Source: Kofleriaceae bacterium (GTDB lineage: Bacteria > Myxococcota_A > Polyangia > Haliangiales > Haliangiaceae). From it: a stretch of DNA of 64,000 nucleotides. Shown here piece after piece: positions 20,159 to 64,000 of this stretch. A model generated the notes under the pieces. That model was not told the origin of the DNA. It made no database searches and worked only from the letters and a program-made list of their open reading frames with translations. The DNA lies in contig JAWKQX010000006.1 in the NCBI GenBank assembly GCA_041389925.1, forward strand, positions 215,837-279,836, written 5' to 3'. Position 1 is the first letter of the stretch. The number at the start of each line of letters is the position of its first letter. The position numbers were made by a program, and so were the translations under genes.

Positions 20159-20182
20159 GACGGCGGAGGTGTAGCTAGGGAG

Positions 20183-20389: not shown

Positions 20390-20393
20390 TCAA

Positions 20394-20555
20394 GTCTCTT
20401 TCCTGGCCTTCAGCGAATGGCCGACCATCTTCCCCAACGCCGTGTGCACGACCGCGCTCATCGACCGCGTCGTCCACCGCGCCGAGATCATCGCCATCGA
20501 AAGTGAGAGCTACCGCAGGCGAGAGTCATCACGCCGCTCGAAGCCCAAGGCGTGA
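20394..20555 (+). mobile_element. IS21-family istB (helper ATPase) 3' fragment
   Basis: ...FPNAVCTTALIDRVVHRAEIIAIESESYRRRE is the characteristic IstB C-terminal sequence (LxDRLxHHAxxxxIxGESYRxxE). No upstream istB or istA is present, so this is a remnant. Confidence 0.7.
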
Positions 20556-20595
20556 ACCGGCCGGTTCAGATTTTCGCGGTTTCACGCGACCGCCA

Positions 20596-20722
20596 ACAGA
20601 GCTCAGCGCTTGGCGAGCTTGATCCCCAGCCCAACCGCGTCGGCGGGGTTCTGGATGGTGTGAGGCCACAGCCACTTGCGCAGGTTTACCGTGGCGCGCA
20701 GGAACTCGGGATCCCAGGTCTC
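20596..20722 (-). pseudogene. duplicated 3' end (~42 codons) of an immunity gene, orphan fragment
   Basis: Sequence cagcgcttggcgagcttgatccccagcc...gggatcccaggtctcgaa matches the 3' ends at 18022-18150 and 19138-19265. It lies between the istB fragment and immunity paralog C. Confidence 0.7.
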
Positions 20723-20738
20723 GAAGCTCCAGCCTCTC

Positions 20739-21578: not shown

Positions 21579-23743
21579 TGTTCACACTGGTACTGTTGCT
21601 TGCACCGGTCATAGCTCTCTGTCCTGCTGTTGAAATATAGCTCATCGTCCTTCTTGTCTTTGCTGTAGTCCTTGCGGCAGTTGGTCTCGATGAGTGATTG
21701 GAGTGCATGGCCGCCTAGCTGAGAAGACGCATCCTCTCCGTTGCGCATCCGCTCCTGATGGTAGTTCCGAACGGCGGAGACATAGTCGCCGAGCTTGAGC
21801 CGACCTGCATATCCCGCAGGCTTGAACTCCAGCACCCAGCAGTCTTGCTTGCCCTTGACTAGCACGCAGTCCGGCCGGTCCTTGCTGAGCCCCGGATACC
21901 CTGAGACGTCGTACAGGTTGCAGCGGAACTCCTTGCCCTTGTCGTTGTGCGCCTGCACACCATAGGCCCTGGCGAACTGGATCGCCGGGTTGTCGTTGCC
22001 GCGCCAGTGGCCGTTCTTGGCCTTGAGCCTGAGCAGGCGCTCGCGTTGCTTCTCGATCTCGGCGAGCACGGCGTTGGCGCCGTCGCGGTACTTGGCCTTG
22101 GCGGCGAGCTTCTTGCCTGTTTCCACGAGCGCAGGGGCGCGCGCGAGGACGCCGTCGATCAGACGCGACTCGCGGTCGATGACCTCGGCGGTCTTCTGCT
22201 CGACGAGCGAGTCCTCGGGCTCCTCGTTGGGCTCGAACTCCACGCCGCACCAGGCGTCCCACAGCTGTTGCATGTCCTTGCAGTCGAGCACGTAGATGCC
22301 TCGGGCGTCGGCCTCCCAGGCGGCGCCCTCTTTCTGGTAGGTCGCGAGGTCGTTGGAGGCGACGCTGCCGAGGCTGCTCAGGAACGTGACGACCTCAGGG
22401 TGACCGACGCCCTTGGCGAGGGCGTCGCACGCGGCGTGGATGCGCTTGTCTTGCTCGTCTCGATAGTCGAGCAGGGCCTTGGCGGCGCGCTGGAGGTTGG
22501 CCTTGACCTGCCGCCAGCGATCGTCGCGCGGGTCGAAGGCGTTTGCCGTCGCGACCAGGCCCGCGTTGGTGGTGCGCTTCCCGTCGGCCCAGGCCAGCGA
22601 CTTGCGATAGTGGTCACCGTGCTTGGCCGCTAGCTCCGGGATGGTCACCAGCGCGTCCGGATCGCGCGCGGCCAGCGCCTGCTTCATTTGCTCGCGCAGC
22701 GCAGCTTCGTCGTTCCTGCACTTGCCCTCCGCTTCGTCCAGCTCGTGCTGCGTGTGCTTGAGCGCGCGCAGCGCCTGCGACGCCGGCTCGAACGCGCGGA
22801 TGTAGTCGGGCCAGGTCTCGGCGATCTGCTTGGCCTTCTTGTCCGCGCCCTTGACCGCCTCCACCTGGCGCACGAGGTAGTCCACCTCGGTCATCACGGT
22901 GCGGGCCTCGTCGATCTTGGCCGCCGAGCTGTCGCCGACGGAGTCGTTGATCAAGCTCTCGATGCGGCGGAACTTCTCGTCCAGCTTGACGTAGAGCTGG
23001 TCCTTGCCTTGCGCCGTGCTGGCTAGCTCGCGCAGCACGCGCTCGATCACCGGGTGCTGGTCGCGGCGGCGCAGGTCGCGGCACGCCGTCTCCGCCTGCG
23101 CGTAGTCGGCTTGCCAGGCGGCGAGCATGCCGGTGGCGGCGTATTGCACCCGACTGGAGACGTTGGACCACGCGTCCGAGGCCGAGAACTGCTGCGCGTA
23201 GCTGGCCCAGCTCTGCAGCTCGGCCTTCTTGCGATCCGCGGTGCTCCACCACTCTTCCGCCTTGCTGCCCACGTCGAGCGCGAGGCGGCGGAGCTCCTCG
23301 ATGCGCGCGCCGTCCTTGTCGCGCTCAAACGCGGTCGCTTGCTCCACCAGTGGCCGCTCCAGATCCTGGCAGCGCCGCGGGAGCTCGCTGACGCTGCGCT
23401 GGTCTGCCTTGAGCTGCACCAGGTACTGCGCAGCTCGATCGAAGTCGTCGCAGATGCGTGGGTAATACGAGACGTAGTTGTTCGCGGTCGAGTCGCCGCC
23501 CTTGACCCGCTCCAACGACGAGAGCCGCGCGCGCACCTCTCTCACCCGGCCGCGCGCGCTCTCGATATCGCTCGCGCTCGAGTCGTTGGCCACGCCGTCC
23601 AGATCGCTCGCGGCGTCGTTGAGCAGCCGCTGGATCTCGCTCACCAGCGCCTGTCGATCGGAGTCATCGTCCGCGTGTCCGCTGCGCATCGCGATCATCG
23701 CTGCGATGCCCGCTCCAACTGCGACCCAAGTCCTGCGCTTCAT
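21575..23743 (-). CDS. Sec-secreted polymorphic-toxin-like protein (722 aa): signal peptide, long alpha-helical region, C-terminal ~160-aa Cys-containing toxin domain that recurs as orphan fragments
   Basis: N-terminal MKRRTWVAVGAGIAAMIAMRSGHA signal. Two degraded C-terminal copies sit downstream, each followed by an immunity paralog. The gene is tightly coupled to paralog C. Confidence 0.7.
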   Translation of the reverse strand: MKRRTWVAVGAGIAAMIAMRSGHADDDSDRQALVSEIQRLLNDAASDLDGVANDSSASDIESARGRVREVRARLSSLERVKGGDSTANNYVSYYPRICDDFDRAAQYLVQLKADQRSVSELPRRCQDLERPLVEQATAFERDKDGARIEELRRLALDVGSKAEEWWSTADRKKAELQSWASYAQQFSASDAWSNVSSRVQYAATGMLAAWQADYAQAETACRDLRRRDQHPVIERVLRELASTAQGKDQLYVKLDEKFRRIESLINDSVGDSSAAKIDEARTVMTEVDYLVRQVEAVKGADKKAKQIAETWPDYIRAFEPASQALRALKHTQHELDEAEGKCRNDEAALREQMKQALAARDPDALVTIPELAAKHGDHYRKSLAWADGKRTTNAGLVATANAFDPRDDRWRQVKANLQRAAKALLDYRDEQDKRIHAACDALAKGVGHPEVVTFLSSLGSVASNDLATYQKEGAAWEADARGIYVLDCKDMQQLWDAWCGVEFEPNEEPEDSLVEQKTAEVIDRESRLIDGVLARAPALVETGKKLAAKAKYRDGANAVLAEIEKQRERLLRLKAKNGHWRGNDNPAIQFARAYGVQAHNDKGKEFRCNLYDVSGYPGLSKDRPDCVLVKGKQDCWVLEFKPAGYAGRLKLGDYVSAVRNYHQERMRNGEDASSQLGGHALQSLIETNCRKDYSKDKKDDELYFNSRTESYDRCKQQYQCEQ

Positions 23744-24396: not shown

Positions 24397-24619
24397 GCAG
24401 CATGAAGAGGTAGAGGCTCTCGACCTTGGCGCGCGCCCACGGGGTCTTGCGCAAGAACTTGAGGCTGGAGGGGATGCTCGGATCGCTGTGGAAGCACTGG
24501 ATGCGCACCTCCTGTCCGAGGCGCGGCCAGCCGAAGTGGGCGACCAGCTCGGTGAGGATGCGCTCCAGGGTGATGCCATGGAGCGGGTTCTTCGGCTGGG
24601 GCTTGGGAGGCTCGGTCAT
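24356..24619 (-). CDS. DUF2132 (VF530-like) family small protein
   Basis: [72 protein letters not shown] matches the conserved DUF2132 pattern. Confidence 0.65.
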
Positions 24620-24730
24620 GGCTCGGTCATGGCTCGGTCATGGCTCGGTCATGGCTCTGGCTGGCGTCCGCGCTCGCGGTTCAGCGACGAACTCGACGAC
24701 GATGACGACGACGTACCTGCGGGCGCGCGC

Positions 24731-49028: not shown

Positions 49029-50390
<1,362 letters not shown>

Positions 50391-50500: not shown

Positions 50501-52636
50501 TTATTCCACCGTGGTCGTGACACCCGGGCGAACCATGACCTTCACACCGTGGATGTTGCTTCCGTCCGTGTTCGAGACATAGACGGTCTGCTTGCCCTCT
50601 TCGAAGGTGAGCTTGCTGGAAGGTCCTCCATCTGCTTGAAGAACCTTGTTTTTTCCTGGAACGACCCAGCCAAATGAGAAGGTCACCTTGGTCAGCTTGG
50701 AGCGAACCTGGACCCTGCGGTTGGCTCGGGTTCCTCCGCTCACGAAGGAGACCAGGTAGTCCCCGTTGTCGAGGGTGCACGTGGCGGGCGCGTCGATGTG
50801 GCGGCACAGGAGCGAGCCATCGACGGAGGCCTTGCCGTCGATGTTGGCTTCTACTCGAAGTTCATTGCCTTCTTGGAGGTTCACCGACTGCTGCATCCGG
50901 CGTGCGCCGGCCGCTGGGGTCATGCGGACCAGGGCGGGGACGCGCCCTGGCAGCGCGAGCACGAAGCGCTGTTCGGTCCCACCCTTGACGAGGATCTCGT
51001 CTGTTGGCGTCTTCACGCCGGCGAGCTGCTGTCCGTTGAGGTAGACGTCCGCGCCGGGCGGATCGGAGGTCAGCACGACCGACGCCAGATCGGCGGCGAC
51101 CGTGAGCGGCTGGACGATCCGCGTCTCGCGGCCCGGCGAAGGCACCGACACCAACGTGGTCGCGGGGCTGTAGCCGTCCTTCTTGAACGTGACGCTGACC
51201 GTGGTCGACGGCGAGAACTCGGTCACCACCTTCGGGGTCTTCCCAAGCTCCTTGTCCCCCACGATGATCGTCGCGCCCGGTGGATCGGTGTCCAGCGCGA
51301 CCGATGCCGCGATCGGCCGCAGCTTCAAGGAGAAGATGTTGTTCTTGTCGTTGACGCGAAACGCCGACGTCGCAGGTTCATAGCCTTCCAGCTGGCCTTC
51401 CAGCGGGTAGGTGCGCCCGACCTCCAGGCCCTCGACGGTGAGCTTGCCGCCCACCGCCACGCCGACGTTCTTGCCTTCGATCACGACGGCCACGTTCGCC
51501 GGATCCGTGCGGATCTCGACGTTGGTCTTCTTGACCGCGAACAGCCGCGGCCACGCGACCACGGCGATCAGCGCGAACATGGTCGCGATGGCGACCCCGA
51601 GCGCCGCCACCAGGCCACGCGACGCGACCTCGGGGCTGCGGCGCTCGATCGGGTAGCTCGCGCCCGCGGGCAGGCGCCGGGACGGACCGATGAGGCGCCC
51701 GGCGGCGTCGATCTTCTCATTGAAGAACCCGAACGTTTCGAGCTGGAGCTTGGGTGCGTCGAGCGAGAACCTGGAGAGCACCTCGGTCGCCACGCCGGGC
51801 AGGACGTTGAACAGGATCTGCGAGCAGTTGTTCGCGATGAGGTAGAGTCCGAGGCCGGCGCCGCCGGTCTTGCGGTCGATCTGCTGCTCGGTGTGGAGGC
51901 ACTTGTGCAGGTAGCGCAGGATGGTCGCGCGCTCAAGCGTGCCGAAGGCGTCGCGGACGGACACCGCGAAGCTCTTGCCGTCGCAGGTGTACTGCACGAC
52001 GACCTTCTGCTCGACGCGGAGCGAGATCCGGGTCTTGGTGGGGATCTCCGAGAAGATCTGGCGGCCCTGCTCATCTACGGGCGCGTCGTAGAGCGCGTTC
52101 ATCAGCATCTCGTCGACGCTCTGCTCGATCGATTCGCGGTACTTGCGGCGCACGCCCATCATCTCGGCGAACTCCGAGATCTGCGCGATACAGAGCGACT
52201 TCTCCTGATAGTCTCCGACGAGCGCGGAGTGAATCTTGGTGCCCCAGGGGACCATCTTCTCGAGGCCGAACAGGTCGCCGCCGAGCACCCTCGTGGCCAC
52301 CGCCGAGAGGTCCGAGACGTCGAAGGCCTCCGCGACCATCACCGCGGCGATGCGCTCCGAGGCCCCGAGGACCTCGACGATCGGGCCGAGGTTGCTGCGG
52401 GGCAAGATGACGATCACCCGCGCGTCTCCCACGAGGCGAGGCAGCAGCTCACCGAGGAGGTTCCCCAGCTCGGGGACCAGGTGGATCGCGATCAAGGCAA
52501 CTGGAAGTTCACCACGGCCAAGCGCTTCCGCGCTCTGATGGGTTTCAACAGCTCCGCCCGCAGCCTTGAGCGCAACCGACATCTGCTTGCCAAAGGCTCG
52601 GTCTGGCGAGATGGCTACGATTCGGCGCGACAACAT
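50501..52636 (-). CDS. PEGA-domain membrane protein with N-terminal receiver-like/ATPase-like cytoplasmic domain
   Basis: One TM segment (LVAALGVAIATMFALIAVVAW), followed by tandem PEGA motifs (DPPGATIIVGDKELGKTP; SDPPGADVYLNGQQLAGVKTP). Confidence 0.7.
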   Translation of the reverse strand: MLSRRIVAISPDRAFGKQMSVALKAAGGAVETHQSAEALGRGELPVALIAIHLVPELGNLLGELLPRLVGDARVIVILPRSNLGPIVEVLGASERIAAVMVAEAFDVSDLSAVATRVLGGDLFGLEKMVPWGTKIHSALVGDYQEKSLCIAQISEFAEMMGVRRKYRESIEQSVDEMLMNALYDAPVDEQGRQIFSEIPTKTRISLRVEQKVVVQYTCDGKSFAVSVRDAFGTLERATILRYLHKCLHTEQQIDRKTGGAGLGLYLIANNCSQILFNVLPGVATEVLSRFSLDAPKLQLETFGFFNEKIDAAGRLIGPSRRLPAGASYPIERRSPEVASRGLVAALGVAIATMFALIAVVAWPRLFAVKKTNVEIRTDPANVAVVIEGKNVGVAVGGKLTVEGLEVGRTYPLEGQLEGYEPATSAFRVNDKNNIFSLKLRPIAASVALDTDPPGATIIVGDKELGKTPKVVTEFSPSTTVSVTFKKDGYSPATTLVSVPSPGRETRIVQPLTVAADLASVVLTSDPPGADVYLNGQQLAGVKTPTDEILVKGGTEQRFVLALPGRVPALVRMTPAAGARRMQQSVNLQEGNELRVEANIDGKASVDGSLLCRHIDAPATCTLDNGDYLVSFVSGGTRANRRVQVRSKLTKVTFSFGWVVPGKNKVLQADGGPSSKLTFEEGKQTVYVSNTDGSNIHGVKVMVRPGVTTTVE

Positions 52637-52859
52637 CCTCGGTGACTGTAACTAGAGATGCGTAGCGACACAAACTTCCGAGCCGCGAGAGTGCGAGATC
52701 TTCCACAAGCTCAGGAAATTTCGAATTTTATTACTTTTCAAGGGGTTGCTTGCTACACCAGCCCAAAATACATCCTGCGCGCTGCGCGGATGTAGGATAC
52801 CTATCCCTCGAAACACCGGCCGCGGCGCGCCGAGGGCGGCTCAGGCTGGCCGACTCAAC

Positions 52860-53399
52860 TCAGATGACGGTCCCGCTCCACCGAGTGAGCCAGGCCGTCG
52901 GCGCGAACTCGGGGATCGGCAGCGGCGTGAGCACCGGCGTGCCATCGCGCCAGAAGGAGCGAAAGTCTCCACGCTCTCCGGTCTTGTAGAAGTGGAGCAG
53001 ATACTCGAGGTCGCACGCCGCGAAGTCGCTGACCCACTGGTCGAGATCTCGCACGCCCACCTCGTGGAGGAGCTGCAGGCTCAGCCGGCACGCGTCGCGC
53101 TCGTACTCCTCCACCTGAGCGAGCGCCTCCGGCGTCCACTCCGTCGGTCGCGCGACCGCGATCGCGCGGGCCTCGGCGGAGACGTTCCACTGCACGGTGT
53201 GACCGAAGAGGTGGATGAGGATGAACAGCGCGTCCTCCAGATCGACGTCGTGATCGACCTGGATCTCGGCGCCGTCGAGATCGCCGGTGAAGGGGTTGGG
53301 CACGTCCGAGATGCGCACCGGGACGCCCCAGCGCGACTCGATCTCGCGCTCCACGCGGTTCCACACCGTGCGGAGGTACTCGGGATCTAGCTCCGCCAT
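52860..53399 (-). CDS. hypothetical acidic protein (179 aa)
   Basis: Start codon coupled to the stop of the upstream small gene. HLFGHTVQW motif. No family recognised. Confidence 0.5.
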   Translation of the reverse strand: MAELDPEYLRTVWNRVEREIESRWGVPVRISDVPNPFTGDLDGAEIQVDHDVDLEDALFILIHLFGHTVQWNVSAEARAIAVARPTEWTPEALAQVEEYERDACRLSLQLLHEVGVRDLDQWVSDFAACDLEYLLHFYKTGERGDFRSFWRDGTPVLTPLPIPEFAPTAWLTRWSGTVI

Positions 53400-53403
53400 G
53401 GCC

Positions 53404-53697
53404 TCACTTCTGACGAGCCATCGACTTCTCGAGGCGCGCGGCGGCCATGTCGTGCAGCACCTGCATGACGTTGTAGGCGGTCAGCTCGGCGAGCAGCTTG
53501 GTGACCAGGGCGTGCTGCTCGTCGGTGAGGGTGGACTCCACCGCGCGCATCGCGGCCAGGAGGTTGGCCTCCTGCGTGGCGAGCTCGGCCGAGTCCACGA
53601 CGCCGTCGGCGAGGGAGGCCGAGAAGTGCTCGAGCTGCTCCAGGTGGCTGTCGAGATCGGGGGTGTGGTCGTCATTGATCCAGTTGGCGCGGGCCAT
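53404..53697 (-). CDS. hypothetical small protein (97 aa)
   Basis: ATG 53697 preceded by a GAAGGAG RBS. Helical and acidic. Confidence 0.45.
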   Translation of the reverse strand: MARANWINDDHTPDLDSHLEQLEHFSASLADGVVDSAELATQEANLLAAMRAVESTLTDEQHALVTKLLAELTAYNVMQVLHDMAAARLEKSMARQK

Positions 53698-53808
53698 TCG
53701 TCGTCTCCTTCGTACCGGGTTGGCTGGCGAGGTGCCGGGCGGCACGCCGCCGGGCCGGGGTGCTCGAGGGCAAGGTCGCAGGCGTCGTCGTCACCGGCGG
53801 CGCCGGCG

Positions 53809-55611
53809 CTAGCGCTCCTCCAGGATCTGCTTGATCGCGGTGAGGCGCTCCTGCATCTTCTCACGCCCGCCCAGGGTGGCGAGGCGCTCGCGCTTCTGCG
53901 CGGGCAGAAACTCCAGGTCCGTGCACTCGATGATCGCGGCGAGCTCCTGGGCCTCGCGCTCGAGCGTCTGGGTGGAGGGCATGAAGCCCGCCAGCGCGCT
54001 GGCCAGGGCGTCCTTGGTGATGGAGGTGGCGCCGGCGAGCAGCGAGGTGCGGTACGCGCGGCCGATGATCCCCTCGATGTCAGCGCCGGAGAGGTGCCCC
54101 TTGTGCGGCAGCTCCGCCGGGATGTCCTCCTCCGCGACGGAGGTGCCGGACTTGCGCGCCAGCACCGTGAACATCTGGCGCAGCTCGGCGTCCTCGGTCG
54201 GGTAGAACAGCGGGATGTGCACCTCGGCGCGGCCCTGGCGCTTGAGGTCGATGGGCAAGAGATCCGGGCGCGCGGTCAGGAGCATCCAGAGGATCCTCCC
54301 GCGGTAGCGCGTGTCGCCCATCTGCGAGGCGATCATGCCGAAGATGCGCGAGCCGACGCCCGAGTCGCCGCCCTGGTCGCGGTCGCCGAGCATGGCGTCG
54401 GCCTCGTCGACGATGACCACCACCGGGCCCATCGAGCGCAAGACGCCGAGCACACGCTCGAGGTTGCCCTCGGTCTCACCGACGTACTTGGAGCGGAAGT
54501 TCTTGAGCACCACCGCCGGGATGCCGATCGAGCCGGCGAGGCACTGCGCGAGGAAGCTCTTGCCGGTGCCGACCGGGCCGCAGAAGAGGTAGCCCATGGG
54601 CACGGTCTCGATGGCGCCGCGCCGGATCAGCTCGGCGTCGTCGAGGAGCCGCTGCTTGGCGCCCTCGTGGCCGACCACGGTGTCGAGGCCCCACTTGGGC
54701 TCCACGAACTCCAGGCTGCCCTGCGCCTGCCGCTCGATGAGGCGCTTCTTGAGCTCGCGGAAGTACGCGCGATCGAGGCGGCGGCCGCCCTCGGCGCCGG
54801 AGCGCGCCAGGACCTCCAGGTCGGTGAGCGAGATGCCCGCGGTGAGCTTGGCCAGCTCGGGGACGCCGTACTCCGAGAACGCCGTCAGATCCTTGCCCTT
54901 GGTCTGGTAGGTCAGGAACGCGCGGCGGTCGGCCTCGTCGGGGAGCGGCACCTCGACGGAGGCGACGTGCGGGTTGCCGGTGAGCCGCTCGGAGAGGCTG
55001 GAGAGCCGCGGATCGATGAGCACGAACGCCATGTTGAGGCGCTTGACGTACGGGCTCGAGGCCCAGTTGAGCAGCGTGACCAGGTGGGTCTGCTCGACGA
55101 GGCCCAGGCGGTCGCCGCTGGGCGCGACGTACGCGGCGTGATCGATGAGGATCGCGGTGCGGATGCGCTCCTCGGGCTCGGCGATGACGTTCTTCTGCAC
55201 GAGCAGATCGATGGCCGCCAGCGCGCGCGTGGGATCGCGGGGGAGCTGGCGCAGATCGCCGAGCCAGCGGTTGGCGAGCTGCACCATCTCCGTGAGGCGC
55301 TTGGCGTTGCTGCCGGCGAGGCAGCGCAGGCCGCGCGCGAGATCGTAGTGGATGACGAGGTCCCAGCGGCCGAACACCTGCTCGGCGAGGAACTCGGCGA
55401 GGCCCACGTAGCGCAGGTCGTCGTCGCCGCCGGCGCGCACCATGTCGAAGGTGTTGCCGTGGAGCACGAACATGGACGTGGTGCCGGAGAAGTAGAGCTC
55501 GGCGAGCTGGGTCGCCCAGGGCGCGAAGTGCGCGGGCAGCGCGCTGGCCTTGCTCACGCCGTCGCCGCCGGCGAGGACCTTCGGACCAGAGGTGGGAGGG
55601 GTGTCGCTCAT
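53809..55611 (-). CDS. AAA+ ATPase (single AAA domain, CDC48/FtsH-like) with ~300-aa N-terminal domain
   Basis: Walker A (GPVGTGKS), Walker B (VVVIVDEADAM), and the second region of homology. 600 aa. Confidence 0.8.
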   Translation of the reverse strand: MSDTPPTSGPKVLAGGDGVSKASALPAHFAPWATQLAELYFSGTTSMFVLHGNTFDMVRAGGDDDLRYVGLAEFLAEQVFGRWDLVIHYDLARGLRCLAGSNAKRLTEMVQLANRWLGDLRQLPRDPTRALAAIDLLVQKNVIAEPEERIRTAILIDHAAYVAPSGDRLGLVEQTHLVTLLNWASSPYVKRLNMAFVLIDPRLSSLSERLTGNPHVASVEVPLPDEADRRAFLTYQTKGKDLTAFSEYGVPELAKLTAGISLTDLEVLARSGAEGGRRLDRAYFRELKKRLIERQAQGSLEFVEPKWGLDTVVGHEGAKQRLLDDAELIRRGAIETVPMGYLFCGPVGTGKSFLAQCLAGSIGIPAVVLKNFRSKYVGETEGNLERVLGVLRSMGPVVVIVDEADAMLGDRDQGGDSGVGSRIFGMIASQMGDTRYRGRILWMLLTARPDLLPIDLKRQGRAEVHIPLFYPTEDAELRQMFTVLARKSGTSVAEEDIPAELPHKGHLSGADIEGIIGRAYRTSLLAGATSITKDALASALAGFMPSTQTLEREAQELAAIIECTDLEFLPAQKRERLATLGGREKMQERLTAIKQILEER

Positions 55612-55724
55612 GGGAGAGGCCTCAGCGCTGGGCGGTCGGAGAGGGGAGGGGCGTGGCGGGGTGGCGGGGGCTCGCTCGGCGGCGTGGGCATGATGCGGGG
55701 AGCGTGGCGACGAAGCGCGCCGGG

Positions 55725-56683
55725 TCAGCGCCGCCGCGCGGAGGCAGAGGTCGCGGGGGCGGAGGCCGCGGCGGCGCGGACCTCCAGGTTGGCGTCGAGG
55801 ATCGAGGGGGCGACGTCCGCGTCGGCGCTCATCCCGGTGATCGCCTGCAGCTCGCGGATGGTGGCCTCGGTCTGCGAGACGCCCTCGGCGATGGCGTCGA
55901 CCTGGACCGAGAGGGTGTCCGGATCGGAGTGGCTGATCGCCATCTCGGTGAGCGCGGCGATCTTGTTCTCGATGCGATCCAGCTCGGCCTGCACGAACTC
56001 CGCGTTGTCGCGCGCCTTCGCCAGGTTGTCCTTGCGTAGCTCGGCGGTCGCCACGCTGTCGCGGATGGAGCGCAGCAGGCGGTCGTCGGCGCGGGCGGCC
56101 TCCTCGAGCTGCTCGGAGCGGCGCTGCTCACGCTGGCGCAGATCCTTCAGGCTGGCGTCGATCGACTTCTCATCGGCCGCCTGGAGGAACGCCGCGATCG
56201 CCTGATCGGAGAGCAGGAGCCGCAGGAACATCCAGAGCAGGCGATCGAGGGCGGGCGCGCGCAGCTCCTGCGAGGCGCCGCTGACGTCGCGGGTGTCGCC
56301 GCGCACCGCGTTGGCGATGCGCTGCATCTCGACGCAGCGCGCGCGCAGGCGGAGGAAGCGGTTGCGCCGCTCGTCGGAGAGGCTGCGCAGCACCTCGAGC
56401 AGCCGATCTCGGGCGGAGGTCGCCGTCGCGGCGGGCTGGCCGGTCGCGGCGCCGCCGCCGCGCTCCTCGGCGCGGACCTTGGCGTCGATGGCGCGCTGGA
56501 AGCGCGGCAGGGTAGCCAGGCCCGCGAGGTAGGTGACCTCCGCGGCGGCGACCAGCGGCAGCGCGATGTCGGCGTGGCCGCTCAGGAGCGCCGCGGCGGT
56601 CGCGCCGCCGAGCGTCAGCAGGTTCCAATGGAAGGCGAACGCCTCCTTGAGGTACCGAAGCAGTCCGGCGCGCTTGACCTCCG
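55725..56683 (-). CDS. membrane protein with two TM helices and a long C-terminal coiled coil
   Basis: GTG/TTG start directly after the ABC ATPase stop (gggagattgagcgtg). LLTLGGATAAALLSGHADIALPLVAAAEVTYLAGLA hydrophobic block, then a heptad-rich tail. Confidence 0.5.
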
Positions 56684-56689
56684 CCACGC

Positions 56690-57786
56690 TCAATCTCCCG
56701 CTCGCTTGGAGCTCTCGAGCTTCTCGATGATCTCGCGGATGCCCCAGACGATCTCCTGGAACTTGGGATCGCGCTGCGACTCCAGCGCCGGCCGGTCCGG
56801 CGGCGGCACCCGCACCTCCTTGAGCACGGTGCCGGGCGAGTTGGAGAAGATCAGGATGTGATCCCCGAGGAACACCGCCTCCTCGATCGAGTGCGTGATG
56901 AAGAAGATCGTCGGCGACTGCTCGCGCCACAGCTCCACCAGGTTGTCCTGCATCTTGCTGCGGGTCGGCGGGTCGAGCGCGCCGAACGGCTCATCCATCA
57001 GGATGATGCGCGGCTTGAGGATGAGCGTGCGCGCGATCGCGACGCGCTGGCGCATGCCGCCGGAGAGCTCGTGCGGGTGCTTGTCGGCGTCGTTCTTGAT
57101 GCTGAGGCCGACCTTGGCGATCCACTGGCGCGCCAGATCGTGGCGCTCCTCCTTGCCCACGCCGCGGCACTCCAGCCCGAACGCGATGTTGTCCAGCACG
57201 GTGCGGTTGTCGAACGAGGTGTAGTCCTGGAAGACCATGCCGCGGTCCGGTCCAGAGCCGAGGATGGGCTTGCCATCGACGAGGACCTGGCCGCTGGTCT
57301 GCGGGAACTGGGGCATCAGGCCGGCGATGAGCCGGATCACCGTGGACTTGCCGCAGCCGGAGGGGCCGAGGATGGAGACGAACTCTCCGCGGCCGGGGTG
57401 ATCCGGGATCGAGAACGTGACGTCCTTGATCGCGGTGAACGCGCCCGGGCCATCGCCGTAGCGCTTGGTGACCTTCTCGAAGCTGACCACCGGCACCGGC
57501 GCGCCCGGAGCCAGCGGCTTGACGATGGGGGTGCCGCCGCCGATGCTGGGGCGCTCGGGGGGCTTGGCGGCGGCTTGCGGGGGCGCCGTGGCGGCCGGCT
57601 CGCTCTGGGGCGCCGCGGCGGCCGGCTCGCTCGGTGAGGCCTGCTCCGCCTCGAACGCGGCCAGCGCTTCGGCGGCCGCGCGCGGATCGACGGGCGCGGG
57701 CGGCGACGCCGCGGCGGGCGCGGCTCCGTCGGCGCTCTTCGCGCTGCCTGAGCCTTCGGTCTCCGCGGGCTTGCTCGGATCGCTCA
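56690..57786 (-). CDS. ABC transporter ATP-binding protein (NitT/TauT family) with Ala/Pro-rich N-terminal extension
   Basis: GPSGCGKST (Walker A), LSGGMRQRVAIAR (signature), ILMDEPFGALD (Walker B). ATG 57786 overlaps the permease stop (GTGATGA). Confidence 0.85.
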
Positions 57787-58677
57787 TCACAAGTCCTTGC
57801 GATAGTAGAACAGCTGGCGCTGGAAGATGCGAACACAGAGGTCGATCCCGAACGCCAGGAGCGCGATGACGAACAGCACGAGGTAGGTGTGGGCCTGCTG
57901 TCCCAACCGCTGCGACGTATTGATGAGCGCGCCGACGCCGGTCTCGGTGTTGATCGCCTCGGCCAGGGTGATGTAGCCGAGGCCCAGGCCGATCTGGAAG
58001 CGCAGGCTGGTCACGATGTCGGGGAGCGCCAGGCGCAAGAGCACCTTGGTGACGATCTGCCGGCGGCTCGCGCCCAGGGTCTGCGCGGTCTCGACGTAGC
58101 GCTCCGGCACCGAGGAGATCGCCTGCATGGTGTCGGAGAAGACGAACGGCACCACCGCGAGGAAGATGAACATGCGCTTCTGCTCTTCCCCGATGGAGAA
58201 CCACACCAGCGTCAGCGGCAGGAGCGCGCCCATCGGCACCGAGCGCAGGAAGATGACCAGCGGCATCAGCGTGGCCGCGACGACGCGATAGGACGCCGCG
58301 ATCACGCCCAGGCCGACGCCGACGACGGCCGCGAACAAGATGCCCAGGAAGACGCGGCTCAGCGTCGCGATGATCGCGTCGATGAGGCCGCGGTCCAGGA
58401 GCGAGCCGAAGGAGCCGAACACCTCGCCCGGGCTGGGGAGCTTCGACGGGGAGACGATGGCCTCCGTGGCCGAGCCGCGGGTGAGCACCCACCACACGAG
58501 CACGAGCAGCGCCACGAACGACGCGCCCATGGCGAAGCGCGCCAGCGGCGGGCCGTCGGCGCGCAGGGTGCGCCACCACGGCGGCGCGTCGGGCACCTGC
58601 GGCTGCGCCGGAGGCGCGGCAGGCGCCTTGGGCGCCGTGGGGCCGTCGGGGGGCGCGGACGCGGCGGGCTTGGTCAC
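57787..58677 (-). CDS. ABC transporter permease (NitT/TauT family)
   Basis: Six predicted TM helices and the binding-protein-dependent transport EAA-like region. Overlaps the stop of the substrate-binding-protein gene. Confidence 0.8.
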   Translation of the reverse strand: MTKPAASAPPDGPTAPKAPAAPPAQPQVPDAPPWWRTLRADGPPLARFAMGASFVALLVLVWWVLTRGSATEAIVSPSKLPSPGEVFGSFGSLLDRGLIDAIIATLSRVFLGILFAAVVGVGLGVIAASYRVVAATLMPLVIFLRSVPMGALLPLTLVWFSIGEEQKRMFIFLAVVPFVFSDTMQAISSVPERYVETAQTLGASRRQIVTKVLLRLALPDIVTSLRFQIGLGLGYITLAEAINTETGVGALINTSQRLGQQAHTYLVLFVIALLAFGIDLCVRIFQRQLFYYRKDL

Positions 58678-60401
58678 TGGGCTTCCGCCGGGATCACCTT
58701 GACCTCGACGCGTCGGTTCTTGACGTGGTTGTCCGGATCGGTCGCGTCGGCCGGCCGGCTCCAGCCGAGGCCCGCGGTGAGGAACTGGTCGGGCTGGAGC
58801 TTGTACTTGTTGGCCAGCGCCTGCTTCACCGCGTTGGCGCGGTTGAGCGACAGCTCCTTGACCAGCATCTCATCCGCGGTGCCGCGCATCGACGCGTCGG
58901 TGTGGCCCTCGATCTGGATGCGCGCCGCGCCGTACTGCCCGGCGAGCTTGGCGATCTCCTCCACGGTGGTCTCGACGTTCGGGTCATACAGGAGGTCCGC
59001 GCCGCCGCTGGGCGACGGCACCTTCTTGTACAGATCGAACGAGTTCGGGAAGAAGCTGATCACCACCGTCTTGGTGAGGATCGCGCTCTCCACGTTGATC
59101 GCCTCGCTCGCCGTCGGCGCGAAGCGGAACTCGTACTCGTTCTTCTGGCTCGCGTACTTCTCCTCCTTGGCGAGCTTCTTGATGACCGAGAAGTCCATGA
59201 TCTGATCGAACGGCACCTTGTCGTCGATCGCGCGCACCGCCTTGTAGAGCAGGAACGCCGTGTTGTACGTGCGCTCGAAGTTCGTCGGGTTGTTGGCGTT
59301 GAGGAAGAAGTCGCGGTTCTCGGCGTAGTTGCACCAGTGCGCGTCGGCGAGCATGGACTGCGCCGTGCCCGGCGGCAGGCTGTAGACGTCGTCCATGAGC
59401 TTGGCGGCCTCGCGCTGCTTGGCCTCGTCCTTGAGCTCGATGACCGCGTCGAGGATGCCGCGCACCAGGCCCTCGATGATGTCCGGGTTGTCGCGCGCGA
59501 AGTCGGCACGCGCGAACCACACGTCCGCGATCAGCTTGTTCGCGGTGCCGGTGTTGATGAGCATGCGGTTGCCGGGGATCTTGGCCAGGTTGTAGATGTC
59601 CGGCGCCCAGCTCACGGCGGCCGCGAGCTCCTTCTCACCGTTGAACGCGGCCGCCGCCTGGAACGCGTCCTGGGTGAAGTTCATCTTCACCTCGGAGGGC
59701 TGCACGCCGCCGTTGAGCAAGATGTTGAGCAGGAAGTAGTGCGACGGCGAGTTCTGCGCCAGCACCACCGTCTTGCCGCGCAGGTCGGCGACCGACTTGA
59801 TGGAGTCGCGCACGACGATGCCGTCGCCGCCGTTGCTCCAGTCGATCTGCTGGTAGACGCGCGGCATGGTGCGCGGATCCTTGTTGAGCCGCTGCACGAT
59901 GAGCGGGAGCATGTCGACGGTGGCCCAGCCGATGTGCACGTCCCCGGAGGCGAACGCGTTGCCCATGTCGACCGGGTTGTCGAGCTGCACCAGCTCGATC
60001 ATGAAGTCCTTGCCCTTGGCGTCCTTCCAGATCTTCTTCGGGTTCTTGCCGCCGTTGGCGTAGATGATCGGAGCCCAGCCGGCCCACACGTTGTAGGCGA
60101 AGCGCACCACCGGCGTCTTCTTGCCGAGCGGCTTGTAGTCGGCGGAGCCCGGCACCGGGGGCAGCTTCTGCGATGCCTCGAAGGTGTACTCCTTGACGGT
60201 CGTGACCCCCTCGGAGTCCGGGTTCTCGGCCTGAGTGGGCGTGCCCGCGCCCTGCTTGATCGCGTTGATGTCGATCGGCGCCTGCTGGCTGGAGGTCTGC
60301 TTCTTGGCGTTCCACCGGTACAGGGCCATGCCGACGAGGCCGGCGACCACGGCGAGGACGGCGAGGAAGAATGCTGGCTTCGGCTTACCTGCGTTGCTCA
60401 T
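58674..60401 (-). CDS. ABC transporter substrate-binding protein (NMT1/SsuA-like) fused to a C-terminal OmpA-like peptidoglycan-binding domain; N-terminal signal anchor
   Basis: N-terminal TM (FFLAVLAVVAGLVGMALY), an SBP core, then ...LNRANAVKQAL...NRRVEVKV, which is the OmpA C-terminal signature. Confidence 0.7.
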   Translation of the reverse strand: MSNAGKPKPAFFLAVLAVVAGLVGMALYRWNAKKQTSSQQAPIDINAIKQGAGTPTQAENPDSEGVTTVKEYTFEASQKLPPVPGSADYKPLGKKTPVVRFAYNVWAGWAPIIYANGGKNPKKIWKDAKGKDFMIELVQLDNPVDMGNAFASGDVHIGWATVDMLPLIVQRLNKDPRTMPRVYQQIDWSNGGDGIVVRDSIKSVADLRGKTVVLAQNSPSHYFLLNILLNGGVQPSEVKMNFTQDAFQAAAAFNGEKELAAAVSWAPDIYNLAKIPGNRMLINTGTANKLIADVWFARADFARDNPDIIEGLVRGILDAVIELKDEAKQREAAKLMDDVYSLPPGTAQSMLADAHWCNYAENRDFFLNANNPTNFERTYNTAFLLYKAVRAIDDKVPFDQIMDFSVIKKLAKEEKYASQKNEYEFRFAPTASEAINVESAILTKTVVISFFPNSFDLYKKVPSPSGGADLLYDPNVETTVEEIAKLAGQYGAARIQIEGHTDASMRGTADEMLVKELSLNRANAVKQALANKYKLQPDQFLTAGLGWSRPADATDPDNHVKNRRVEVKVIPAEAQ

Positions 60402-60539
60402 GCGATACCTGCTGGGGACAGTCGAGTTGTAAGGGAGGCAACAACGATGAGGTCCGCGGCGGACGCGCGCGCGGGGGGAGAGGGGACGGTCCCCGCGGTC
60501 TCGTCGGAGTGTTGCTGGTGATAGCGGTGAGACACCGGA

Positions 60540-61289
60540 TTACTCGGTTTGCTTGGCGAGCTCCGCCGGGCCCAGGTCTTTTGCGGTCTCCACGACCGCG
60601 GCGGTCTCCGGTGCGCGCATCCCCAGCTCGACCTCCAGCCCCTTGAGGGCGTCCTCGGCGAGAGACTGCTCCATGCGCTCTTCGGCGTGGATCTTGTCCA
60701 TGCCCTCGGACGAGAGGTCGGACGCGACGCGCGCCTTGCCGCGGTTGGCGTCGATCTTTCCCTGGATGACCGACTCGAGCTGGCCGAAGTCGGTGGTCAG
60801 GTTGATGTCGAAGCTCTGCGAGAGCTTGGCGACCTCGGCCTCCGCCTCGCTCATCTTGAGCTCGGCGTCGTAGCGCGTGATCTTCTCTTTGACCTCGACC
60901 AGCTTCTTGTTGGCGTGCTGGATCTTCTTGAGGTTGTTCTGATAGGCCTGCTCGTGCATCACGAGCTGCTCGCGGTTCTGCTCGACCTGGGTCTTGGCCT
61001 TCTGTAGCTCCAGCGCGAACTTCGAGGCGGTGTCGCGATCGCCCGCCTTGAGGTACGCCTTGGCCTGCGCCGTCAGCTTGGCGATCTGGGTATCGCCGTC
61101 CTTGACCTGACGAGACACGCGCTCGACCAAGCCGCGGTATTGCTCGAGCCCCACGCGACCTTCTTTGAGTTGCTCGACTGCGAGATCGTATTCGTACTGC
61201 ATCTGCGCGATCGGATCTGCTTCCCAGAAAAAGTTGGCCAGCTTGTTGAGCTGCGCCCGCATCGCACCGAAGAACTTCTTGAAGATCAT
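60540..61289 (-). CDS. pspA: PspA/IM30 (phage shock protein A / Vipp1) family protein
   Basis: MIFKKFFGAMRAQLNKLANFFWEADPIAQMQYEYDLAVEQLKEG... coiled-coil PspA pattern, 249 aa. GGAGG RBS upstream of ATG 61289. Confidence 0.8.
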   Translation of the reverse strand: MIFKKFFGAMRAQLNKLANFFWEADPIAQMQYEYDLAVEQLKEGRVGLEQYRGLVERVSRQVKDGDTQIAKLTAQAKAYLKAGDRDTASKFALELQKAKTQVEQNREQLVMHEQAYQNNLKKIQHANKKLVEVKEKITRYDAELKMSEAEAEVAKLSQSFDINLTTDFGQLESVIQGKIDANRGKARVASDLSSEGMDKIHAEERMEQSLAEDALKGLEVELGMRAPETAAVVETAKDLGPAELAKQTE

Positions 61290-61639
61290 CAGGTCCTCCC
61301 CTGAGCCGCCGGCGGCTTGCCGACCCCAGGACAGTAACGGCAGGGCGAGGCAGGGACAAGCGCCCCCCCCGTCCATCGCACCCGCGCGAGCCCCGCCGCG
61401 CGCCGGGCCGCGCGGCGAGCTGGTCGACACCGGCTCGTGAGGTGCGCGCCGCGGCCTCGCGAGACGCGCGCCTTCCGTTGCGGCTCCAACCCGTGACGTG
61501 CGCAAGCAGAGGCTCACCGGCGCGCGGGTACGTTCGGGGTAAAGCCGTCGTGCGGCTGGCCGACTGAGGCAGACACATCCTTTTGCTCGTCGGACTCGCA
61601 CGGAGGGTCGCGTCGAGCGCGGCTTCCCTGAGAGGAACT

Positions 61640-64000
61640 ATGACGATTTTTCGACGAGGCTTATGGATCGCAACAGTCTTCGGGTTGGCGAGCTGCTCGA
61701 ACGGCCGCAGCAAGGTCGCGGAGGTCGAGCAGCGCGTCCTCGGCGACAACGACGACGACGGCGTGCCCGACGAGGCGGACCTCGACGACGATAACGACGG
61801 TGTCCTGGACTCGATCGAGTGCCCGGCGCCGACGCTGGCGGCGCAGGAGTTCTGGGTGATGTTCAACCCGAACAACGGCCCGTCAGGGCGCCGCGATCTA
61901 CACGTCGCCGGTCCTCCAGGCACGTCGGTGATCATCGACGGCGGCGCTCCGGTGCTCATCCCGGCCGAGGGCATCCTCACCGTGGACACCGGGCTCGGCC
62001 GCATCCCGACGCCCAACATCGTCGAGAGCGGGAAGGCCATCCTGGTCACGTCCTCGGCGCCGGTGCAGGTCTTCGCCAACAACTTTCAGTCGTTCACCGT
62101 CGACGCCTTCACGGTGGTCCCGGTGCAGCTCCTCGGCACCGACTATCGCGCGATCGGCTATCCGAACGCCATTGGTCAGCCGTCGCAGGTCTCGGTGTAC
62201 GCGACCGAGGACAACACGACGGTCACCATCGAGGGGATCGCTCCGTTCGTCCTCAACCGCGGGCAGTCGTACCTGCGCTCGTTGGTCGGTGACGCGACCG
62301 GCCTGCGCGTCGTCTCGGACAAGCCGGTCGCGGTCAACGCCGGCGATAGCTGCCTCAATACCGGCGATGGGTTCTGCGACCACGTCGAGGAGATGCTCTT
62401 CCCGGTGGACTCGTGGGCGAGCGAGTTCTACGTGCCGGTGATCCCGCAGGGGCAGAACTTCCGTGTCGTCGCGGCGACCGACGGCACCGTTGTCAACGTC
62501 GACGGTGTAGACGTGGCCACGCTCGCCGCCGGGCAGGCCTACCAGGGCGCCGGCGGCGGGCACCGCATCACCGCCAGCAACCCGGCCGAGGTCTACATGA
62601 TCGCCCTCGGCGACACCAGCGGGACCGGCGACCCCGCGTTCATCCTCTTGCCCGGCGCGCAGAACGGCGTCGGCACCGCCACGTTCAGCGCGCTCGCCGC
62701 CGACAACGAGAACACGCTGGTGGTCTCCATGCCGACGGTGGCGGTGGGGACGCTCATGCTCGATGGCGCGCCGGTGGCCCCGACCTGGACTCCGTATCCA
62801 GGGGGGGCCTACTCCTACGCGTCGATCGCCGTCGCGGTGGGCTCGCATACGCTGTCCGCGGATCAGGCCTTCATCCCGGTGGTGTGGGGCGAGAAGCCCT
62901 TCGAGAGCTACGGCTACGTCGCGGGCTATGGGTACCCGCCCGGCGTGTGCACCACCGACACCGACGGCGACGGCATCATCGATAGCTTCGACCCGGACAG
63001 CGACGGCGACGGCATCAACGACGTCGACGAGTCCGGCGGCACGGACCTCGATCGAGACGGCCGCGCCGATGGGCCGGTCGACAGCGACGGCGTGCCCGAC
63101 TCCGCGGGGGGCGGCACCACGCCGCCGGACACCGACGGCGACGGCACGCCCGACAACCTGGACTCCGATAGCGACAACGACGGCGTCAACGACGACACCG
63201 ACAGCCACCGCACCAACGCCTTCCTCTGCCGCGATGTCGACGGCGACACCTGCAACGACTGCTCCGTCACGGGGCCGGATCAGTCCGGCGGCGACGTCAA
63301 CAACGACGGGCCGGACACCGACAGCGACGGGCAGTGCAACGCGTTCGACTCGGACGACGACAACGACGGCGTGCCGGATGTGCTCGACAGCAACGCGACC
63401 GACCCGCGGCAGTGCCGCGACGTCGACGCCGACGGCTGCGACGACTGCTCGGTCACCGGCGCGAACAACTCCGGCGGTGACGTCGCCAACGACGGGCCGG
63501 ACACCGACAGCGACGGGGCCTGCAACGTCGGCGATCCGGACGACGATAACGATGGGGCGCTCGATCCGGTGGACTCGGATGACGGAAACCCGTTCATCTG
63601 CTCGGACACGGACGGCGACACCTGCGAGGACTGCTCGAGCGGGATGTACAACCCGGCGGCCGACGGGCCGGACCTGGACGGCGACGGGAGCTGCGACGCC
63701 GGCGATCCGGACGACGACGACGACGGCGTGCCGGACGGCACCGACAACTGCCCGGGCGTGGACAACCCCGACCAGGCAGACTTCGACGGGGACGGCGCCG
63801 GCGACGCGTGCGATGACGACGACGACAACGACGGCCTCAGCGACGTGCTGGAGCTGGCCGCGCGCAGCAACCCCTTCGACGCGGACACCGATGACGACGG
63901 CCTGATCGACGGCGTGGAGTTCAACCCCGGCGGCGACACCGACGGCGACGGCATCCCGAACGTCCTGGACGCGGACTCCGACAACGACGGCCTGTTCGAC
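61640..64000 (+). CDS. secreted lipoprotein with N-terminal IgGFc-binding-like beta-domain and thrombospondin type-3 (Ca-binding, DxDxDGxxD) repeats; 3' end beyond the window
   Basis: ATG 61640 with a gagagga RBS, lipobox LASC. No stop codon in frame to position 64000. More than a dozen repeats of the type DTDGDGIPNVLDADSDNDGLFD. The minus-strand ORFs here are repeat shadows. Confidence 0.7.
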   Translation, partial: MTIFRRGLWIATVFGLASCSNGRSKVAEVEQRVLGDNDDDGVPDEADLDDDNDGVLDSIECPAPTLAAQEFWVMFNPNNGPSGRRDLHVAGPPGTSVIIDGGAPVLIPAEGILTVDTGLGRIPTPNIVESGKAILVTSSAPVQVFANNFQSFTVDAFTVVPVQLLGTDYRAIGYPNAIGQPSQVSVYATEDNTTVTIEGIAPFVLNRGQSYLRSLVGDATGLRVVSDKPVAVNAGDSCLNTGDGFCDHVEEMLFPVDSWASEFYVPVIPQGQNFRVVAATDGTVVNVDGVDVATLAAGQAYQGAGGGHRITASNPAEVYMIALGDTSGTGDPAFILLPGAQNGVGTATFSALAADNENTLVVSMPTVAVGTLMLDGAPVAPTWTPYPGGAYSYASIAVAVGSHTLSADQAFIPVVWGEKPFESYGYVAGYGYPPGVCTTDTDGDGIIDSFDPDSDGDGINDVDESGGTDLDRDGRADGPVDSDGVPDSAGGGTTPPDTDGDGTPDNLDSDSDNDGVNDDTDSHRTNAFLCRDVDGDTCNDCSVTGPDQSGGDVNNDGPDTDSDGQCNAFDSDDDNDGVPDVLDSNATDPRQCRDVDADGCDDCSVTGANNSGGDVANDGPDTDSDGACNVGDPDDDNDGALDPVDSDDGNPFICSDTDGDTCEDCSSGMYNPAADGPDLDGDGSCDAGDPDDDDDGVPDGTDNCPGVDNPDQADFDGDGAGDACDDDDDNDGLSDVLELAARSNPFDADTDDDGLIDGVEFNPGGDTDGDGIPNVLDADSDNDGLFD
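62940..64000 (+). repeat. tandem thrombospondin type-3-like coding repeats (GAC/GGC-rich)
   Basis: Repeated gacaccgacggcgacggc / gacagcgacaacgacggc units. Confidence 0.8.

Follow-up and report, generated by a model that had tools for sequence, protein, structure and literature searches.

A 64,000-nucleotide stretch of a Kofleriaceae bacterium genome (hereafter, the window) carries on its minus strand a cassette of eight genes, led by pspA. Judged by gene content and order, the cassette is a conserved operon-like unit, with seven core genes found across phyla and an eighth found only in Haliangiales/Kofleriaceae loci. We propose, with a probability of roughly 0.5, that it is a PspA-based module for inner-membrane remodelling or repair, that has a dedicated AAA+ motor and is linked physically to an ATP-binding cassette (ABC) transporter tethered to peptidoglycan. 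The gene order and its interpretation were already published computationally in 2024, and the locus joins that set. New here are gene 7 as a core component, gene 8, a conserved promoter-like element, the C-terminal tail motifs, a sensor-1 substitution in the AAA+ protein, and a negative Snf7 result.

The eight open reading frames span positions 52860-61289 and are listed below in the order of transcription, together with the promoter-like element that precedes them.

61331..61359, minus strand: promoter-like element TTGTCC-N17-TACTGT, ending 41 nucleotides (nt) upstream of the pspA start codon
60540..61289, minus strand: gene 1 (pspA), a PspA/IM30 protein of 249 amino acids (aa), exact match to MEZ4363342.1
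58674..60401, minus strand: gene 2, a membrane-anchored NitT/TauT-type substrate-binding protein (SBP) fused to an OmpA-like peptidoglycan-binding domain, 575 aa
57787..58677, minus strand: gene 3, an ABC transporter permease, 296 aa
56690..57787, minus strand: gene 4, an ABC transporter ATP-binding protein, 365 aa
55725..56687, minus strand: gene 5, a hydrophobic helical hairpin followed by a coiled coil, 320 aa, without a Pfam family
53809..55611, minus strand: gene 6, a two-domain AAA+ ATPase, 600 aa
53404..53697, minus strand: gene 7, a predicted helical protein of 97 aa, no family
52860..53399, minus strand: gene 8, 179 aa, no family

Start codons were picked by ribosome-binding sites and adjoining stop codons. 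Each of the eight translations is identical to an NCBI protein of a Kofleriaceae bacterium metagenome-assembled genome (MAG), where the eight follow one another as MEZ4363342.1 to MEZ4363335.1, so the gene models are not in doubt. The original prediction, made from the letters of the window, had named pspA, an SBP-OmpA fusion, a permease, an ATPase, a transmembrane/coiled-coil protein, a 600-aa AAA+ ATPase and two small proteins, and the gene models and domain scans bear this list out. It had also described all eight genes as overlapping or abutting. The strand, order and coordinates stand, as do four tight junctions, i.e., a 4-nt overlap between genes 2 and 3 (the start of gene 3 overlaps the stop codon of gene 2 as GTGA), a 1-nt overlap between genes 3 and 4, and spacings of 2 nt between genes 4 and 5 and 4 nt between genes 7 and 8; the other three junctions are gaps of 138 nt (genes 1 and 2), 113 nt (genes 5 and 6) and 111 nt (genes 6 and 7). 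The median intergenic distances in relatives, from genes 1 and 2 through to genes 7 and 8, are short (33, 5.5, 10, 1, -4, 19 and 1 nt), so the three larger gaps are a local peculiarity of the window.

With the gene 5 alignment as query against a single genome of each species, a scan gave 73 loci, which come from Haliangiales/Kofleriaceae-type Myxococcota MAGs, with the exception of one contig binned as Ideonella. Enough flanking sequence for the whole cassette was present at 40 of the 73 loci. All eight genes were detected at 37 of these and genes 1 to 7 at 38, and at every one of the 40 the detected genes were colinear and on a single strand. Five distant loci, found by contig look-up of distant gene 5 homologues (49-54% identical to gene 5), lie in one complete Acidobacteriota genome and four metagenome contigs. 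They keep the order of genes 1 to 7 at 42-72% identity, i.e., PspA, SBP-OmpA (575-581 aa), permease, ABC ATPase, gene 5 and an AAA+ protein of about 600 aa (525 aa in locus L078, where the contig ends inside gene 6), followed, in each of the four contigs long enough to reach beyond gene 6, by a gene of 90-95 aa. This arrangement lies well outside what chance would give (37/40 complete, 40/40 colinear, five distant loci), and the view of the eight genes as one unit is upheld by their conservation in related loci. Across these lineages, the distant-phylum cassettes included, PspA is about 70% identical and the AAA+ protein about 64%. Such conservation suggests either a strong joint constraint on the components or a recent horizontal transfer of the cassette.

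Two further observations concern these loci. The G+C content is about 70% in the window, 0.62 in pspA, 0.65 in the SBP-OmpA gene, and 0.67-0.73 in the other cassette genes; the low values of the first two genes, taken with the PspA identity across phyla, may reflect horizontal spread of the cassette. In two of the distant cassettes, L074 (4992-5756) and L078 (4880-5662), which are the Acidobacteriota genome and an ENA contig, a gene for a VWA-domain protein lies directly 5' of pspA and is read from the same strand; the window has no such gene.

The product of gene 1 matches PF04012 PspA_IM30 (E 3.6e-12, 46.8 bits against a cut-off of 33.9), with residues 1-218 aligned to profile positions 1-214 of 220, so that its family membership covers the helical core. 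The N-terminal amphipathic sequence is MIFKKFFGAMRAQLNKLANFFW. Beyond the Pfam domain lies a tail (residues 219-249) that is specific to the cassette and conserved across phyla, with E219, G223, P227, K237, L239, G240 and P241 invariant. Gene 5 ends in a tail as well, TG[LM]-x7-P-x-IL, which is kept even in members that are 40% identical. In hhalign comparisons of PspA with gene 5, the sole segment ever aligned, with shallow and deep profiles alike, was that of the C-terminal tails (P about 0.2, non-significant), and the two tails are a candidate shared recognition motif for the ATPase. The ESCRT-III superfamily includes PspA (Liu et al. 2021, as cited by later papers).

The ATPase encoded by gene 6 combines an active classical-clade AAA+ domain at about residues 320-550 (PF00004 AAA at 342-467) with a degenerate AAA-like N-domain at about residues 30-300. 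Neither Walker motif is kept in the N-domain (LHGNTFD and ILIDHA stand at these places), which is thus an inactive AAA domain, in line with the published label 'inactive classical AAA + classical AAA', and residues 1-310 are as strongly conserved as the active domain. In an AlphaFold2 model with a predicted local distance difference test (pLDDT) score of 71, it has an alpha/beta core of five strands and, after that, a helical lid; an hhalign comparison of the N-domain with the protein's own C-domain was uninformative, as the profiles were too shallow (effective number of sequences, Neff, 1.7). In 48 homologues there is no variation in Walker A (GPVGTGKS), Walker B (VVIVDEAD), the aromatic pore loop 1 (KYVGE) or the arginine fingers of the second region of homology (RQGR), a motif set that, on sequence grounds, is typical of a substrate-threading unfoldase. 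The sensor-1 asparagine (ATNRP motif) is replaced by alanine (LLTARPD, residues 444-450), with T446 invariant and A447 nearly invariant in the same 48 homologues. The nearest solved relatives by sequence are Afg2, Cdc48 and VAT (E about 1e-29), and the NCBIfam scores are 69.8 bits for CDC48, 62 bits for PAN and 35.4 bits for CdvC.

Gene 5 has neither a Pfam nor an NCBIfam family. Its AlphaFold2 model (pLDDT 74.5) is all-helical, with a moderately hydrophobic hairpin (helices 3-36 and 39-75) that contains an invariant Glu50, and, past a disordered linker, helices at 92-129, 144-193, 203-251 and 256-284. The family comprises 846 cluster representatives at 50% identity (E <= 0.001). Ravi et al. 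(PMC11237479) called the protein a membrane-anchored divergent Snf7 ('TM+divergent Snf7'). The possibility raised in the original prediction, that this membrane protein is PspB/C- or LiaI-like, found no support, as gene 5 resembled neither in any search. As a side observation, positions 58-123 of the gene 5 profile weakly matched four PDB sequences of one protein, VPS4B/SKD1, in its MIT domain (E 0.23), a match that is non-significant and was gone with a deeper profile.

The fusion of a NitT/TauT-type SBP to an OmpA domain, noted in the original prediction, is genuine, as it is kept in related and distant loci. In the product of gene 2, an NMT1 domain occupies residues 135-321 (E 2e-7) and an OmpA domain residues 468-562 (PF00691, E 1.8e-12, 47.9 bits against a cut-off of 27.2), and the PDB relatives include TauA (6ssy, E 3.5e-12) and Omp38 (3td3, E 1.3e-9), with SsuA also among the closest solved structures. 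The fusion measures 557-592 aa in 52 related loci, and in the five distant loci it matches Pfam OmpA in 5/5 and NMT1 in 4/5. A frameshift or annotation artefact was considered and is ruled out by this conservation and by an in-frame G+C content at third codon positions (GC3) of 0.97. The only hydrophobic segment spans residues 7-30, and the N-terminus contains no lipobox. The OmpA domain carries the motifs GHTD and LSxxRA (LSLNRA), which presumably contain the Asp and Arg that contact diaminopimelate in OmpA-like domains (AbOmpA, 3td3 family). The domain is thus predicted to bind peptidoglycan, and the binding protein to be tied at one end to the inner membrane, by an uncleaved N-terminal helix, and at the other to the cell wall, by its C-terminus.

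The permease (gene 3; PF00528 BPD_transp_1, E 9e-23) has TauC and SaoP as its best NCBIfam matches, below cut-off, and the ATPase (gene 4; PF00005 ABC_tran, E 1.1e-28) is TauB-like by NCBIfam. A binding protein, a BPD_transp_1 permease and an ABC ATPase, i.e., the trio of a type I importer of the NitT/TauT family, are therefore encoded together. The best NCBIfam match of gene 2 is TIGR03427 (urea-associated binding protein; 80 bits against a cut-off of 334), TauA scores 53 bits against 304, and all its NCBIfam scores are so far below the cut-offs that it falls into none of the substrate-defined equivalogs (TauA, SsuA, NrtA, urea-associated). Gene 4 has an N-terminal extension of about 95 aa, rich in Pro and Ala, with an in-frame GC3 of 0.91 (0.79 and 0.73 in the other frames), which suggests that it is translated. 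The extension is not kept in relatives, and the ATPases of the distant loci are 266-292 aa long.

Gene 7 matches nothing in Pfam, NCBIfam, PADLOC, PHROG or PDB. It follows the AAA+ gene directly in 57 Haliangiales loci, and each distant locus long enough to include it (four of four) has a homologue, with 46-57% identity and E values of 4e-26 to 6e-39. By this synteny we regard it as the seventh core component of the cassette, which is new here and not in the published neighbourhood. Gene 8 likewise has no match in Pfam, NCBIfam, PADLOC, PHROGs or PDB; an alignment of 30 orthologues revealed the invariant motifs PFTGDLDG, HLFGHTxQWN and DFxACD. It is found in 37 of the 40 complete Haliangiales loci, and no counterpart follows gene 7 in the distant loci.

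Inspection of the region upstream of pspA indicated that an element of the form TTGnnn-N16-18-TAnnnT occurs at the equivalent place in 45 of 50 loci, whereas shuffling gives an expectation of 0.64 loci and a maximum of 3. The conserved form is TTGAGx-N17-TAnnnT, and its -10 hexamer mostly ends about 40-48 nt before the pspA start codon; we infer a housekeeping (sigma-70)-type promoter. A generic sigma-70 and terminator scan of positions 52400-62200 returned no promoter-like sites, having missed this element because its thresholds are stricter, and the terminator-like sites were all on the wrong strand. Separate promoters for pspA and the ABC genes, which would speak against a single unit, were looked for in the internal gaps: the three gaps contain no sigma-70-like element, no intrinsic terminator and no Rfam family, and their RNA folds are unremarkable (z-scores -2.05, +1.25 and -0.11), without U-tracts. 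A sigma-54 promoter upstream of pspA, for which the original prediction had suggested a search, was not found. Positions 61290-61640 hold no match to TGGCAC-N5-TTGCW with up to two mismatches, and no GG-N10-GC site is consistent among 50 orthologous pspA upstream regions; the sigma-70-type element is conserved instead.

What was established directly is which genes are present, their domain architecture, the state of their motifs and their synteny across phyla, and from these we infer a mechanism. The sigma-70-type promoter about 40 nt upstream of pspA would drive one transcript through all eight genes. PspA would polymerise on the cytoplasmic face of the inner membrane, into which gene 5 would insert by its N-terminal helical hairpin, with the coiled coil, held at the membrane in this way, partnering or nucleating the polymer. 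The ring formed by gene 6 would engage the C-terminal tails of PspA and/or gene 5 through its degenerate N-domain, possibly with gene 7 as an adaptor, and its active domain would thread these tails through the KYVG pore loop, leading to disassembly or recycling of the polymer, as Vps4 does for ESCRT-III. With the SBP held by its N-terminal helix in the inner membrane and by its OmpA domain on peptidoglycan, the machine would be fixed relative to the cell wall, and the TauT/NitT-type transporter would either move a small solute or report on periplasmic conditions where remodelling takes place. The earlier claim of an envelope-stress or remodelling machine, rather than a nutrient importer, is partly supported, as the linkage of transporter, PspA and AAA+ protein across phyla argues for a membrane or envelope machine over a stand-alone nutrient importer, and Ravi et al. 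2024 concur; a link to motility or development is not supported.

Several results weigh against this proposal. The gaps of 111-138 nt leave room for internal promoters below the detection of a consensus scan. When 39 close and 92 diverse representatives of the gene 5 family were scanned against Pfam, no Snf7 or PspA match appeared, only coiled-coil noise; PDB profile searches with gene 5 were negative, its hhalign comparison with the cassette PspA was non-significant (P 0.2-0.3), and Foldseek with the gene 5 model ranked CdvB2 filament chains only at E about 0.7. The ESCRT-III/Snf7 status of gene 5 thus rests on the literature; our analysis neither reproduced nor confirmed it. The similarity between the tails of PspA and gene 5 is, by hhalign, statistically non-significant. 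The sensor-1 change from Asn to Ala might lower the ATPase activity of gene 6. This protein contains no MIT domain and its AAA domain is nearer to Cdc48, Afg2 and PAN than to CdvC; because these defining features were looked for and are lacking, gene 6 is not a member of the Vps4 family. No credible Rfam match to a riboswitch that would name the solute was obtained.

The cassette is a candidate equivalent, in bacteria, of the ESCRT-III/Vps4 machinery for membrane remodelling and may work like it. A more specific form of the proposal, which we advance tentatively, is a complete bacterial ESCRT-III-type machine with its own AAA+ disassembly motor, in which PspA is joined by gene 5 as a second, membrane-anchored polymer subunit, the two-domain ATPase recognises a motif shared by the tails, gene 7 is a small adaptor, and the whole is mechanically referenced to the wall via the peptidoglycan-bound ABC transporter. 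A different use of the same parts, which we think unlikely, is a sensor of the envelope state, in which the SBP and ABC proteins sense a periplasmic ligand or the distance between inner membrane and wall, no nutrient is imported, the transporter's ATPase cycle controls PspA assembly, and the AAA+ protein acts as a regulator that retains or frees PspA, loosely like PspF in E. coli, and not as a disassembly motor. A binding protein tethered at both ends (transmembrane helix and OmpA) is odd for a shuttle that delivers solute, and the distance of gene 2 from every equivalog cut-off, the loss of the sensor-1 Asn in gene 6, and the control of PspA by an AAA+ protein in Proteobacteria (review) all fit a sensor; however, the permease and ATPase look like ordinary, intact parts of a type I importer, and gene 6 carries a pore loop for threading but neither a DNA-binding domain nor one for interaction with sigma-54, in a locus without a sigma-54 promoter. 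Vesicle formation or cargo sorting, with PspA, gene 5 and the AAA+ protein budding or pinching the inner membrane and the SBP selecting periplasmic cargo or marking the site, has a precedent in archaeal Vps4/ESCRT loci ('Meth_adaptin'), which include the ABC-type binding protein ProX and for which cargo sorting was proposed (Makarova et al., mBio 2024), and the pairing of ESCRT-III with an AAA+ protein is the core of scission machines. A peptidoglycan anchor would nevertheless oppose the release of vesicles, the cassette has no ESCRT-I/II-like or winged-helix adaptor genes, and the functions of bacterial PspA so far are repair and stabilisation (review), which makes this reading quite improbable.

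The remaining two explanations would reduce the locus to known activities. That genes 2 to 4 are an ordinary importer of sulfonate, taurine or a urea-like solute, beside a functionally unlinked pspA and AAA+ gene, would agree with their closest named families (TauABC, SsuABC and the urea-associated binding protein), with the closest structures (TauA and SsuA), and with the 111-138 nt gaps between blocks in the window genome. We consider it very unlikely, as the seven genes stand in one order in Myxococcota, in Acidobacteriota and in further metagenomic lineages (42-72% identity, mostly tiny gaps), the binding protein there is always fused to OmpA, and all scores are far below the equivalog cut-offs. 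An anti-phage role, i.e., an abortive-infection or membrane-guard system of PspA and an IetA/IteA-like AAA+ protein, is suggested by the match of the gene 6 AAA domain to IetA/IteA models (PADLOC E 5.9e-15, NCBIfam E 1.4e-12) and a weak match of the OmpA domain to ZorB models. These matches are generic and at the level of domains, with no system-specific partner such as the IetS protease; genes 5, 7 and 8 match nothing in PADLOC or PHROGs; and a PspA identity of about 70% across phyla with stable chromosomal synteny is unlike the fast turnover of defence islands, so that we hold this role to be highly improbable. Both the coincidental importer and defence are disfavoured because of the cross-phylum synteny and because defence-specific partners are absent.

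The remodelling and repair proposal bears on the disassembly and recycling of PspA and Vipp1, bacterial relatives of ESCRT-III, an open question in the field that the cassette makes testable with a handful of proteins. Reviews (including Makarova et al., mBio 2024) hold that Vps4-like partners are absent from bacteria; an ESCRT-III-type machine with an AAA+ motor would, if true, overturn such statements and supply a minimal, genetically compact system for ATP-driven ESCRT-III dynamics. Why a membrane-remodelling module is coupled to a wall-anchored ABC transporter is a second puzzle. Before this, the only mention of the cassette was in the supplementary table of a single comparative-genomics paper.

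Three genes flank the cassette in the window.

61640-64000, past the window end, plus strand: TSP3 lipoprotein of >787 aa, with lipobox LASC and many TSP3/calcium-binding DxDxDG repeats
50501-52636, minus strand: PEGA protein of 711 aa, with a cytoplasmic N-domain, one transmembrane helix (337-368) and three PEGA domains
49029-50390, minus strand: FHA, sigma-54 activator and Fis-type helix-turn-helix gene, 2.5 kb downstream of the cassette

The lipoprotein gene starts at 61640, 350 nt from the pspA start codon, and is divergent. The suggestion in the original prediction that it shares a divergent promoter with the cassette does not extend to relatives, as the gene lies upstream only in L002, the closest relative. 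A PEGA protein gene follows gene 8 in about 30 related loci with a median gap of 29 nt; in the window the gap is 223 nt, with a promoter-like element of its own (TTGTGT-N17-TACAGT), and the start codon we chose for the 711-aa gene differs from the public call. Full-length orthologues of the FHA-sigma-54 activator (about 62-82% identity) lie downstream of the cassette, at variable distance, in about 18 Haliangiales/Kofleriaceae loci. As no sigma-54 promoter was found at pspA, a regulatory link between this activator and the cassette is at best possible. The PEGA and FHA genes are syntenic only within this family (Kofleriaceae) and are not counted as part of the cassette. Elsewhere in the window, positions 24609-24657 contain a perfect 11-nt tandem repeat, GGCTCGGTCAT, in 4.5 copies, which surfaced as three matches to the sigma-54 pattern. 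Positions 18900-22100 contain direct repeats of 284 nt (89% identity), 135 nt (99%) and 130 nt (98%) spaced 2977 nt apart, suggesting tandem paralogous genes or repeated domains.

The closest described counterpart of the cassette is the neighbourhood of OGG56892.1 (Candidatus Handelsmanbacteria) in Table S3 of Ravi et al., mSystems 2024 (PMC11237479), given as PspA, PBPB-OmpA, permease, ABC ATPase, TM-Snf7, and inactive-AAA+AAA, and read there as a link between solute transport and the ATP-dependent remodelling of membranes, in which OmpA binds peptidoglycan. Order, strand and domain architecture of the first six genes are identical and the functional inference is the same; the published row ends at the AAA+ gene, whereas gene 7 (across phyla) and gene 8 (in Haliangiales loci) are added here. 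With pspF-pspABCDE of E. coli the cassette shares a PspA/IM30 effector with an N-terminal amphipathic helix and a co-encoded AAA+ protein. It differs in having no PspB, PspC, PspD or sigma-54 promoter (none of the eight proteins matched PspB or PspC), in an AAA+ protein of the classical-clade unfoldase type with a pore loop instead of a sigma-54 activator, and in the extra conserved C-terminal tail of its PspA. Because the defining features (PspF, sigma-54, PspB/C) were looked for and are lacking, the cassette, judged by its genes and motifs, is not a canonical Psp regulon.

As in the archaeal and eukaryotic ESCRT-III/Vps4 systems (CdvB/CdvC, Snf7/Vps4), the gene of an ESCRT-III-superfamily polymer protein adjoins that of a classical-clade AAA+ protein with an aromatic pore loop, and on the cassette side both candidate substrates (PspA and gene 5) have conserved C-terminal tails; in contrast to those systems, the cassette ATPase has a degenerate AAA domain in place of the MIT domain, and ESCRT-I/II parts are missing. 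The archaeal Meth_adaptin loci also place an ABC-type periplasmic binding protein inside an ESCRT-III/AAA+ locus, but there it is ProX and not NMT1/TauA-like, alongside a true Vps4 and adaptin-like parts, and neither an OmpA fusion nor a full transporter is reported. The TauABC/SsuABC (NitT/TauT) importers have the same set of binding protein, BPD_transp_1 permease and ATPase and give the best family and structure matches, whereas the cassette scores are well below the equivalog cut-offs, its binding protein has an uncleaved transmembrane anchor and an OmpA-like domain, its ATPase carries the Pro/Ala-rich extension, and the transporter genes invariably lie with pspA on one side and gene 5 on the other. 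A C-terminal OmpA-like domain with GHTD and LSxxRA on an inner-membrane-anchored protein is shared with the MotB, TssL and Pal anchors, and what sets gene 2 apart from these is its middle domain, which is a solute-binding protein and not a plug or linker.

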